A DNA stretch of 64,000 nucleotides. Source: an uncultured cyanobacterium (GTDB lineage Bacteria; Cyanobacteriota; Cyanobacteriia; Cyanobacteriales; CAWUOF01). Numbering within the stretch: the stretch's first letter is position 1; the number at the start of each line of letters is the position of its first letter. A program made the position numbers and the translations under genes. Location of the stretch: assembly GCA_963744145.1 (NCBI GenBank), contig CAVUSO010000001.1, positions 7,520,001 to 7,584,000 of the forward strand. Direction: 5' to 3'. Of this stretch, positions 1,785-4,458 are shown in pieces. The notes below the pieces were generated by a model. The model was given only the letters and a program-made list of their open reading frames with translations, was not told the origin of the DNA and did not search any database.

Positions 1785-1927
1785 TGGGGTAGCGGGACGG
1801 GATTTGAACCCGTAACTTCCGGAAAATTAGTCAAGGATCAGTCTAAAAGTAGATTGTAATCAATAAACCTCGACTTTTCGGCCCATTGAGGCAAGGTTGG
1901 CACTCTACCAATTGAGTTATCCGCTAC
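1785..1927 (-). ncRNA. tRNA-like Y RNA candidate 1 (YrlA-like, permuted topology)
   Basis: Acceptor GTAGCGG/CCGCTAC plus C plus CCA; D-arm ACTC-AATTGGTA-GAGT; T-arm ACGGG-TTCAAAT-CCCGT; anticodon arm replaced by a long insert containing TTGCCT-CAAT-GGGCCGAA; adjacent to TROVE. Confidence 0.82.
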
Positions 1928-1954
1928 AAGAAATTAGGAAACGAGAGGATAGAA

Positions 1955-2083
1955 GGTGACGGAGCAGGATTTGAACCTGCGTCTCCTGCGGGGTAGGCAA
2001 TAACCCTCAATTATTCGGCCCTGACGGACAAGTTGTTAATCAAGGATGTTTTTGGTATCCTGAGCCTCTAGACGATCCGTCAC
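1955..2083 (-). ncRNA. tRNA-like Y RNA candidate 2 (YrlA-like, permuted topology)
   Basis: 8-bp acceptor GTGACGGA/TCCGTCAC; D-like arm GTCTAGAGGCTCAGGAT; T-arm GCAGG-TTCAAAT-CCTGC; insert with TTGTCC-GTCA-GGGCCGAA...GGTTATTGCC; no encoded CCA. Confidence 0.82.
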
Positions 2084-2098: not shown

Positions 2099-2296
2099 TT
2101 AGGTCTGGTGGTTTTGATGCTGCCACCCAAGCTAGACCATACATCACTAGCGTGAATATTCCAGGATTACATCGCGATCATCCCCAGACTAGATCGGGTT
2201 TAGTCTAAGTTTCGGTAATTTTACTGTAGACAACATCGATTTTCGATGTTCTACTTGTGTGATAAGGTGGTCAACGAATAGGATGAGAAAAATAAA

Positions 2297-2597: not shown

Positions 2598-3878
2598 CTA
2601 TGATTTTACTGGGAATGTAGCCAGAATTTTTTTAGCAAAGATGAAAGCTTGTTCAGTTGTGGAAATTTTACCTTCAATATGTGCTAACTGAATTTGAGTA
2701 AGTAACCAACCAACTTGGGGACCTGGAGGAATTTGTAAAGCTTGGATCAAATCCTTACCATTAAGCAAAGGAATCGGGTGAGCAACTAAATCATCAGGAT
2801 CAAGATAGCGCTGAATTAAAGGTGCGATCGCATCTAGGTCAGCTCCTACAGCTAAAGCTAAAACAACTATAGCCGGAAAACCTTTCTCTAAAGTCCGAAA
2901 GAAAAAAAACTGCTCAGGTAAAGAAAAATCAGCTGCTGTTTGGAGCGATCGCAACTTCGGTAAAAATTGCAGCAGGACATTAACCGCATGAATTTCTGCC
3001 CGACTAGATTTTAACTCCCGCATCAACAACGGATCAAGCTCAGTTTTGGCAATTCCCGGAGATAGTAAACTGGTTAACTTCGCGATCGCTAACCAACTCA
3101 AAGGATACATTCCTCGGACTTGAACCGATAAATCTAATACTAATTGCGGCCAATTTTCTGTTAAAATTACTACTGCACGATCAATTGCAGCTAATTGTAC
3201 TAAACTCTCAGCCGTAATATCTAATTGTAAAGCTGCTGATAATCCCCCATCTTCCCAAGCAAGAGTTAACCATCTTGTCCCCTGGGAATGATTAAGCAAA
3301 TAGCTAATTTCCATCAAAATTCGCTCTTTTGCTACTCTTACCAATAAATCAGCACAATTACGCATTGCTACTCTTGTATCTGTTGCGATCGTCAAACCTA
3401 ATTGAGCAGCTTGTCGATAACCTCGTAGGATTCGTAACGGATCATCCTCCAAATTAGCTTGGGAAATCATCCGAATGATTCTCCGTTCCAAATCAACCTG
3501 ACCTTGAAGTGGGTCAAAAAAAACTCTCTGGTGAGGACTATAGGCGATCGCATTAATGGTATAATCCCGTCGATGCAAGTCTTGCGTTAAAGTAGCACCT
3601 TCCTGTTGAGCAAAATCTGCTGTCCCATGAGCAAATACAACTCGCGCAATTTGTCGCTGGGGATCTAACAAGACAAAACCACCATCACACACTTGAGCAA
3701 TCTTCCGAGCTGTCTTAACCGCATTTACAGGTAAGACAAAATCCAAATCAAAATAATCGGACTTTCGTCCTAGCAAAGCATCTCGGACTGAACCACCAAC
3801 CAAATAAGCAGACTCTGGTAATAAACTTAAACTAAATGGCCAATGTTCAGGAGATAATGCTAGAAAATCACTGTCCAT
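2598..3878 (-). CDS. tRNA nucleotidyltransferase / poly(A) polymerase family (likely the cyanobacterial CC-adding type)
   Basis: Motifs YLVGGSVRDALLG, DLDF, DLHRRDYTINAIA, DDPLRILR; no DHH/CBS extension. Confidence 0.9.
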   Translation of the reverse strand: MDSDFLALSPEHWPFSLSLLPESAYLVGGSVRDALLGRKSDYFDLDFVLPVNAVKTARKIAQVCDGGFVLLDPQRQIARVVFAHGTADFAQQEGATLTQDLHRRDYTINAIAYSPHQRVFFDPLQGQVDLERRIIRMISQANLEDDPLRILRGYRQAAQLGLTIATDTRVAMRNCADLLVRVAKERILMEISYLLNHSQGTRWLTLAWEDGGLSAALQLDITAESLVQLAAIDRAVVILTENWPQLVLDLSVQVRGMYPLSWLAIAKLTSLLSPGIAKTELDPLLMRELKSSRAEIHAVNVLLQFLPKLRSLQTAADFSLPEQFFFFRTLEKGFPAIVVLALAVGADLDAIAPLIQRYLDPDDLVAHPIPLLNGKDLIQALQIPPGPQVGWLLTQIQLAHIEGKISTTEQAFIFAKKILATFPVKS

Positions 3879-4277: not shown

Positions 4278-4458
4278 TCGGCGAAGAAGGGCGAAGCATT
4301 CGGATCTAATATTACTGGCTTGATTGTTTAATTGTCGCCCGAATGCTTCGCCCCTACGGTTAACTGAACTTTATTGGGCGTTGCTGATTTACGGTATGAA
4401 TAAATAATTTGTAGGGGCGCAAGAGCCATACGCCCCTACGGTTAACTGAATTGTATTG
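4095..4458. mobile_element. Composite MITE with REP-like hairpins and 10-bp TSD
   Basis: Ends CAATCCGGTTCAGTTAAC / GTTAACTGAATTGTATTG; flanked by CATTTTAATT at 4085-4094 and 4459-4468; internal GTAGGGGC...GCCC hairpins. Confidence 0.75.

Follow-up and report, generated by a model that had tools for sequence, protein, structure and literature searches.

Bacterial Y RNAs have so far been described as circularly permuted mimics of tRNA that lack a free CCA end, and those of cyanobacteria have been drawn in the same way by homology. The question raised by the Ro60 (rsr) locus described here, which lies in a 64-kb stretch of an uncultured cyanobacterial genome (hereafter the window, meaning the whole stretch of DNA that was analysed), is in which order the modules of such an RNA are joined. 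Two tandem tRNA-shaped units, RNA 2 and RNA 1, precede the Ro60 gene on the minus strand, and they can be joined either as in a tRNA or as in the published Y RNA-like RNA, YrlA. Comparison of sequences across the phylum leads us to consider it probable that the unit in tRNA order is the functional RNA, and that RNA 2 and RNA 1 belong to a conserved family of Ro60-associated Y RNAs that is homologous to YrlA module by module.

Anatomy of the two RNAs

The anatomy of both units can be read directly on the minus strand. RNA 2 runs GUGACGGA-UC-(GUCU AGAGGCUCA GGAU)-A-CC ... GG-AGAC-(GCAGG UUCAAAU CCUGC)-UCCGUCAC-C, and RNA 1 runs GUAGCGGA-UA-(ACUC AAUUGGUA GAGU)-G-CC ... GG-AAGUU-(ACGGG UUCAAAU CCCGU)-CCCGCUAC-C-CCA. 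Their features, together with the spacer between them and the gene that follows, are listed here from 5′ to 3′; R1 is the covariance model of the family introduced below, H1 and H2 are helices of the insert, and MFE stands for minimum free energy.

2083-1955, minus strand: RNA 2, a class A unit (sequence; R1, 102.7 bits, aligned to the consensus structure; RNAalifold consensus and pair counts)
2083-2076 with 1963-1956: RNA 2 acceptor, GUGACGGA/UCCGUCAC, 8 of 8 pairs
2073-2057: RNA 2 D arm
2055-2054 with 1986-1985: RNA 2 C27C28, paired with GG
2047-2042 with 2008-2003: RNA 2 H1
2040-2037 with 2013-2010: RNA 2 H2, separated from the Ro helix by an internal loop
2031-2026 with 2021-2015: RNA 2 Ro helix, bulged C at 2017 or 2018, loop GUCA at 2025-2022
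1980-1964: RNA 2 T arm, GCAGG-UUCAAAU-CCUGC
1955: RNA 2 3′ end, unpaired C, no encoded CCA
1928-1954, minus strand: spacer of 27 nucleotides (nt) from RNA 2 to RNA 1, the loop of the 'acceptor stem' under the YrlA register
1927-1785, minus strand: RNA 1, a class B unit (sequence; Rfam tRNA model, 34.8 bits; R1, 73.4 bits; class B consensus fold; MFE fold in part)
1927-1920 with 1796-1789: RNA 1 acceptor, GUAGCGGA/CCCGCUAC, 7 of 8 pairs, A:C at the eighth
1917-1902: RNA 1 D arm
1900-1899 with 1820-1819: RNA 1 CC, paired with GG
1894-1878: RNA 1 Ro hairpin, loop CAAU at 1888-1885, bulged C at 1880 or 1881
1875-1868 with 1836-1829: RNA 1 second local hairpin, AGUCGAGG with CCUUGACU
1813-1797: RNA 1 T arm
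1788 and 1787-1785: RNA 1 3′ end, unpaired C followed by encoded CCA
1780-203, minus strand: Ro60 (rsr), 525 amino acids (Pfam vWA_Ro60, 1.1e-35; TROVE, 1.9e-14)

The preliminary description of this locus had given the order acceptor, D arm, CC, insert, GG, T arm, acceptor for both RNAs, and this order was recovered directly in the sequence. The same was true of the other anatomical features that it reported: an acceptor of eight positions, perfect in RNA 2 and with one mismatch in RNA 1; a discriminator plus CCA at the end of RNA 1; a 34-nt core common to both inserts (1998-2031 and 1861-1894), which aligns as described; a UUGYCY/GGGC(C)GA helix with a bulged C; and a Ro60/TROVE gene downstream. 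G18G19 and the UUCAAAU T loop are also present. A decodable anticodon stem-loop is absent from both RNAs, and an insert of 76-88 nt occupies the place of the anticodon arm. This insert carries the Ro-binding strand GGGCCGAA in both units and folds into the hairpins UUGUCC-GUCA-GGG(C)CGA in RNA 2 and UUGCCU-CAAU-GGG(C)CGA in RNA 1, each with one C bulged. The Ro60-binding motif GNCGAA... of YrlA and its partner strand are thus present in the window units, and in relatives both strands align to the YrlA consensus. As judged from these strands, the units show an intact Ro-type helix, UUGCCU/AGG-C-CGA, which we liken to the helix GGUCCGA/UUGACC of animal Y RNAs, where a C is likewise bulged.

RNA 2 and RNA 1 represent two separate conserved classes, A and B respectively. 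In class A the place of the anticodon arm is taken by a long, irregular hairpin; H2 of RNA 2 is AUUA/UAAU, and its counterpart in relatives is (A/G)UUC/GAAU. Class B lacks the 5′ strand of H1 and H2, and its conserved GAGG strand has its pairing partner in a CCUU strand downstream of it. This local hairpin is backed by the consensus fold of 22 class B units, with covariation at one pair (CG in 12, UA in 7, UG in 3), and it is held, together with the acceptor and the T arm, by the MFE fold of RNA 1. Class B is usually the most distal unit in relatives; in the window it is the unit adjoining Ro60.

A conserved family linked to Ro60

Ro60 homologues were found in 53 of 401 sampled genomes of the phylum, with alignments beginning at residue 3. 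We took the best 30 Ro60 loci, with 1.5-kb flanks each, as the relatives' loci, and a motif parse revealed tandem units upstream of Ro60 there too. A seed alignment of 55 distinct units was then folded with RNAalifold. Without any hint, the program returned the 8-bp acceptor, the D stem, the bulged hairpin UGCCU/AGG(C)CG and the T stem, with a compensatory change in 18 of the 22 predicted pairs. Four helices were added by eye: positions 27-28 with 42-43, H1 (AUCCUU/GAGGGU), H2 ((A/G)UUC/GAAU) and a small hairpin before the variable loop. In the 38-pair structure, 95.0% of cells were paired and double changes occurred at 24 pairs; none of 500 shuffles was as good, and sliding the 3′ partners by 1-3 columns lowered the paired cells to 41-52%.

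The covariance model R1 was built on the 55 units. Over 31 Ro60 loci it gave 115 matches, 112 of them full length. Upstream arrays held 0-6 units (mode 4) and reached about 1 kb upstream of rsr, and a further match lay just downstream of Ro60 in 20 of 30 loci. The downstream unit (for example L014:3120-3231) is about 113 nt long, scores 42-60 bits with R1, lies about 50-250 nt past the Ro60 stop and has a 7-bp acceptor, GGCGGGU/ACCCGCC, without CCA; none follows the Ro60 gene of the window. The insert is the most conserved part of the unit, and it matches the Ro-binding strands of YrlA.

In the window, R1 matched RNA 2 (102.7 bits, E 2e-22) and RNA 1 (73.4 bits, E 2e-15) and nothing else. When the whole 7.7-Mb genome was searched, one further match exceeded 60 bits (full length, 67.4 bits), and it lay upstream of a second Ro60 paralog; ordinary tRNAs of the genome scored 51.6 bits or less. 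All three genomic copies are therefore located at Ro60 genes, and the match of the two window RNAs to the tRNA-like unit exceeds chance. The second paralog (68% identity; L031, G000:C1:5212500-5219500, minus strand) is preceded by a single class B unit with the acceptor GUGGUGGG/UCCACUAC, A73, CCA and G3-U70. Just ahead of its start codon stands a short Ro-helix-like hairpin, UUGUCC-UGAC-GGG(C)UGA, and further upstream two copies of a repeat of about 110 nt flank an open reading frame on the opposite strand.

These data also bear on the explanation that the units have no role in Ro60 biology and are tRNA genes that have decayed or carry introns, or else repeats derived from tRNAs. The Rfam tRNA model (RF00005) does recognize RNA 1 at 34.8 bits, above its gathering score of 29, with 78 nt inserted at the anticodon; in the tRNA register it passed this score at 33.8-47.7 bits, and in distant lineages tRNA gene arrays flank Ro60. 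However, the units lack an anticodon loop and ARAGORN called no tRNA at RNA 1 or RNA 2. The insert is the best conserved part and matches the Ro-binding strands of YrlA, the three copies in 7.7 Mb all sit at Ro60 genes, and the inserts appear much too short, and their sequence much too well conserved, to be group I introns. We regard this explanation as extremely unlikely.

Covariation and the register of the units

The window sequence is readable in two registers because the tRNA model fits RNA 1 and the Rfam YrlA model (RF02553) spans RNA 2 and RNA 1. In the canonical YrlA register, the mature Y RNA would run from GGGCCGAA of RNA 2 (about 2021) through the T arm of RNA 2, the spacer and the D arm of RNA 1 to UUGCCU of RNA 1 (about 1889). 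Its termini would make the Ro-binding stem, the spacer would close the 'acceptor stem', and what lies outside, the D arm (2083-2057) and the T arm (1813-1785), would be left over or would belong to other RNAs. The Rfam model aligns in this way: its match in the window is partial (1983-1902, model positions 28-81, 23.8 bits) and leads from the T arm of RNA 2 into the D arm of RNA 1, and in relatives it matches over its full length at 28-38 bits. Every one of these scores is nevertheless below the gathering score of 69. In the relatives the 5′ Ro strand of the consensus falls on AAGGCCGACGAAUUGAGGAUUAU of unit n and the 3′ strand on UCCUUGUUCACCCCUUGCCUG of unit n+1; since the YrlA consensus aligns over its full length across the unit boundary, every YrlA module is present in the units.

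The YrlA register is also the one published for cyanobacteria. In the parts of Chen et al. (2014; PMC4201824) available to us, YrlA is described with its termini in the Ro-binding stem, the T arm before the D arm and a loop-closed 'acceptor stem'. This architecture is the one that the preliminary description had ascribed to YrlA, and it agrees with the available text of Wang et al. (2018; bioRxiv 10.1101/312249). Supplementary text 2 of Chen et al. includes Calothrix, Stanieria and Gloeocapsa in a second covariance model in the YrlA register; the cyanobacterial rows read AGGCCGA..., T arm, N-CCA, an A/T-rich stretch, GTGGCAGG, D arm and ...TTGTCT. Table S1 lists Nostoc, Calothrix, Cyanothece and other loci as YrlA. 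The same paper gives cyanobacteria 'a longer acceptor stem', which in the text of Wang et al. is 'predicted to be much longer', and states that the ends had yet to be established by experiment.

The two registers predict different pairing partners for the same strands: within a unit (cis) in tRNA order, and between neighbouring units (trans) in YrlA order. Over the 112 full-length units, all eight acceptor positions paired in cis in 83 and seven of eight in 24. We then applied a symmetric test to 63 adjacent unit pairs, counting positions at which both cis pairs were canonical and the trans pairs broken, and the converse. Register-fixing covariation was found in the acceptor, where 80 of 500 positions supported cis and 0 of 288 supported trans. 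The pairs 27-28:42-43 gave 22 of 107 for cis and 0 of 58 for trans, H2 gave 9 of 136 and 0 of 124, the Ro helix 4 of 378 and 1 of 216, and H1 1 of 214 and 0 of 185. A model-free parse of the same question returned 32 cis-only cases and 1 trans-only case. An asymmetric test of the insert helices had seemed to favour trans (35 vs 14); its cases were single mismatches in one unit and not compensatory, the effect was gone in the symmetric test, and we rejected it.

Features other than pairing bear on the register as well. The Ro helix is closed by a GNRA loop in 69 of the 112 units and by UUCG in 11 (together 80 of 112), and its bulged base is C in 93. A four-base GNRA or UUCG loop is the signature of a structural cap and not of RNA termini, and these loops lie exactly where the YrlA register would place its ends. 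Solitary units with the D arm before the T arm occur at the second Ro60 gene, at L023 and L025, and as the single downstream units of 20 of 30 loci; they can fold in the tRNA register only and cannot form an RNA in the YrlA register. In arrays, the YrlA register would leave orphan half-units at the ends, yet these are perfectly paired in cis with each other's partners. Finally, the spacers (13-139 nt, simple repeats) are 48% identical, compared with 86% for the flanking units, so that the supposed internal loop is the least conserved part of the array, and it contains the CCA.

Both architectures are found at one locus in a distant lineage, L046. There, the same Ro60 gene is accompanied by a compact YrlA whose short acceptor stem is closed by a loop (Rfam, 55.4 bits) and, separately, by a tRNA-register unit in which a loop closes the Ro helix (R1, 72 bits). 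Because both occur in this locus, the YrlA and tRNA-order architectures coexist and can be distinguished. In L046 and in three other distant lineages (L045, L048 and L051), Ro60 genes of 32-35% identity stand amid arrays of 10-20 genuine tRNA genes, in which compact RNAs of the canonical YrlA-like kind occur as well, and tRNA-register units with the Ro hairpin are present in L046 and L045.

Several points weigh against the tRNA register or temper the evidence for it. The published cyanobacterial annotation uses the YrlA register. The acceptor strands of neighbouring units are alike, and 399 of 504 positions pair in either register; in the window itself, trans pairing of the acceptor reaches 7 of 8, and for that reason the window alone cannot settle the register. 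Only units with 7 or more of 8 acceptor pairs and an insert of 55-95 nt had been admitted to the seed of 55, kinship among the sequences inflates the shuffle statistics (0 of 500), and the alignment behind the large counts, such as 80 of 500, was fitted to the cis structure by R1. As for the window RNAs, the Rfam tRNA model gave no match to RNA 2 at E ≤ 1, the D stem of RNA 2 has two G-U pairs, and single-sequence MFE folds miss the D arm and the Ro hairpin (z about -2.2). RNA 2 and 25 of 29 Ro60-proximal units have no encoded CCA, and an acceptor of 8 bp is an atypical substrate for RNase P.

Taken together, the tRNA register is better supported by the covariation than the YrlA register that has been published, as far as comparative sequence analysis can say, and we consider it unlikely that the canonical YrlA register is that of the mature RNAs. 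The preliminary description had proposed the reversed topology, and it gains support from the cis covariation of the acceptor, of positions 27-28:42-43 and of the insert helices, as well as from the Ro-helix tetraloops, the isolated single units and the poorly conserved spacers. Its proposed searches with the tRNA and YrlA covariance models (34.8 bits on RNA 1; 23.8 bits, partial) and its proposed covariation alignment of the regions upstream of Ro60 (acceptor, cis 80 of 500 vs trans 0 of 288) are those reported above. The mature RNA that would have spoken against it, from GGGCCGAA of RNA 2 to TTGCCT of RNA 1, is the weaker fit (23.8 bits against a gathering score of 69; 0 of 288 trans acceptor positions), although it follows the register published for cyanobacteria.

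CCA ends and the alanine identity set

Encoded CCA follows the acceptor in 44 of 92 upstream units, namely in 40 of 63 inner units vs 4 of 29 Ro60-proximal units; among the ordinary tRNA genes of this genome, a loose test finds CCA behind 8 of 63. A U stands directly before G1 in 73 of the 112 units. Together, G3-U70 and A73 make up the alanine identity set, on which tRNA-Ala and tmRNA both rely, and the tRNA-Ala of this genome has G3-U70 and A73, with CCA not encoded. G3-U70 is found in 23 of 112 units, 22 of which have an unpaired A73 and an encoded CCA, and a G-U at 3-70 occurs in 1 of 67 units without CCA. The set is kept while stem positions 5-8 covary, and its association with CCA may stem in part from shared descent. 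G3-U70 is absent from the two window units, which have G3-C70 and A3-U70, but is present in the one at the second Ro60 locus. In another subclass, a G paired to C stands immediately ahead of the CCA, as in tRNA-His.

A more far-reaching reading of these patterns is that some of the RNAs that tether Ro60 would be substrates of the tRNA machinery up to and including aminoacylation. The arrays would then encode charged or chargeable mimics that couple Ro60 surveillance to synthetases, elongation factors or the sensing of tRNA-end damage, and they would be the unpermuted ancestors of YrlA, which would have arisen by a register shift in a tandem transcript. We hold this wider reading to be doubtful.

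Gene context and a possible leader role

The genes upstream of the units, all on the minus strand, are the following.

6257-5166, minus strand: HrcA gene
between the HrcA gene and the PolyA_pol gene, minus strand: open reading frame of 227 amino acids without a Pfam family
2598-3878, minus strand: PolyA_pol/CCA-adding (tRNA-nucleotidyltransferase) family gene, 426 amino acids, directly upstream of RNA 2 and RNA 1
gap of 515 nt between the PolyA_pol-family gene and RNA 2

One other member of the PolyA_pol family is encoded in the genome (an 861-amino-acid frame). We considered a functional link between the units and the CCA-adding gene as conserved synteny and rejected it: in all 5 of the relatives checked, megabases separate the ortholog from Ro60, so the adjacency looks specific to the window. 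Between the 227-amino-acid frame and the nucleotidyltransferase gene, a perfect 15-bp inverted repeat, GGGCGAAGCAUUCGG ... CCGAAUGCUUCGCCC, with a 35-nt loop (4281-4359) came up through weak, chance-level Rfam matches. About 10-50 nt upstream of the 5′ end of RNA 2 lies a hairpin, GGUCU..GGUGG-loop-CCACC-AGACC, followed by UAAUAUAAU (2100-2140, minus strand); this could mark a promoter region or else the place where the upstream transcript ends. A promoter scan of 100-2700 returned 8 promoter-like sites where 7.9 were expected.

The Ro60 ATG (ATGATG; 1777-1788 region, minus strand) starts 4 nt past the CCA of RNA 1, and no Shine-Dalgarno sequence is visible ahead of it at the locus. Processing of RNA 1 would make the rsr mRNA nearly leaderless. 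This arrangement invites the explanation that the units are mainly cis-acting structured leaders of rsr mRNA, serving as Ro60 autoregulatory operators or as signals for 5′-end processing, and not stable free RNAs. Both window units lie on the rsr strand, as all units do, and the scan of 100-2700 found no terminator-like site between them and rsr. In 14 of the 14 relatives examined (L002-L019, oriented about 1434-1500), moreover, the trailer from the proximal unit to the rsr start equals the units in conservation (87%) and contains a further Ro-helix-like hairpin, UUGCCC-GNAA-GGGCYGGGAG, which overlaps GGGAG, the likely ribosome-binding site. This hairpin is a candidate for an autoregulatory operator; the window locus lacks it. 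On the other hand, arrays of as many as six units stretch to about 1 kb upstream, units are also found downstream of rsr in 20 of 30 loci, and an encoded CCA together with the full set of nucleotides for tRNA tertiary interactions would be superfluous in a leader. YrlA homologues are, furthermore, stable Ro60-bound RNAs in three species, according to the available text of Chen et al. (2014; PMC4201824). That the units act mainly as leaders seems to us quite improbable, while a leader role and a free Y RNA role can hold together.

Proposed maturation and function

If the tRNA register is the right one, each unit would consist of the 5′ acceptor strand, the D arm, a 2-bp remnant of the anticodon stem, the Ro-helix insert with its tetraloop, the variable loop, the T arm, the 3′ acceptor strand and an unpaired nucleotide, followed by CCA in RNA 1. 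Transcription, processing sites, Ro60 binding and function are what we infer from this anatomy. The array would be co-transcribed with rsr. RNase P would cut 5′ of G1, the 8-bp stem being set by the unpaired N73-CCA; the 3′ end would be made by RNase Z or exonucleases, with the CCA either encoded or added, and the spacer (1928-1954) is predicted to be removed. Each RNA of about 130-140 nt could then fold into an L-shape whose 'anticodon arm' is the docking site for Ro60. The tRNA-like elbow and the open acceptor end might present Ro60 to a tRNA-binding partner or effector, or gate Ro60, as for Yrn1 and YrlA.

Were this correct, a whole clade would use one-piece, open-ended RNAs, competent for RNase P and CCA addition, in which the anticodon arm is the Ro60 dock. 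It would change which enzymes could act on a Ro60-bound RNA, and charging of Y RNAs would become directly testable with defined candidates. It would also give the proposal that YrlA arose from tandem tRNA transcripts a concrete intermediate; a model of YrlA origin from dimeric tRNA transcripts is cited in the available text of Wang et al. (2018; bioRxiv 10.1101/312249).

Comparison with known systems

Because these loci were already listed as YrlA in the 2014 supplement, as far as it was available, neither the RNA class nor its association with Ro60 is new. Within the literature searched, the apparently new points are the register in tRNA order, the closing of the Ro helix by a tetraloop, the class structure that the arrays show and the correlation of CCA with G3-U70; that literature yielded no description of unpermuted Y RNAs and nothing under the cyanobacterial Ro60 locus tags.

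The closest relative is YrlA (RF02553) of Salmonella Typhimurium and its relatives, which likewise lies beside Ro60, often in several copies per locus, and shares the T arm, the D arm and the Ro-binding strands. In YrlA, however, the T arm comes before the D arm, the acceptor is closed, there is no free CCA end and the termini are in the Ro stem, whereas in the family described here the D arm comes first, the acceptor is open and often has an encoded CCA, the Ro helix is closed by a tetraloop, and scores stay below the YrlA gathering score. Judged by these alignments, the units differ from YrlA in connectivity only, with the YrlA termini joined by a tetraloop and the acceptor loop opened.

The processed YrlA of Mycobacterium smegmatis resembles the units in a different respect. 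As described in the available text of Chen et al. (2014; PMC4201824), it is made from a precursor upstream of rsr, has a 7-bp acceptor that RNase P recognizes and cuts, and bears CCA in vivo; an RNA that is bound by Ro60 and has real tRNA-type ends is therefore known already. It is nevertheless a permuted transcript in two pieces (82 and 65 nt) held together by pairing, whereas one continuous chain is predicted here. The b7a-tRNA of Burroughs and Aravind (2016), which we compare through its description in the available text of Wang et al. (2018), is also a predicted tRNA-shaped non-coding RNA found in RNA-repair neighbourhoods and occasionally beside Rsr; by that description it is strongly like an authentic tRNA, and a Ro-binding hairpin is not mentioned there, but it may overlap with the present family.

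The tRNA-like domain of tmRNA offers the remaining parallel. It is non-decoding and has an acceptor, a T arm and a CCA end, and G3-U70 and A73 are shared by a subclass of units. The units differ from it in having neither an mRNA-like reading frame nor pseudoknots, and the two in the window have no G3-U70. The Rfam tmRNA model (RF00023) made weak local matches at the T arm and acceptor end, in the window no more than a 10.5-bit match to the T arm, and the true tmRNA of this genome is encoded elsewhere (129.3 bits).

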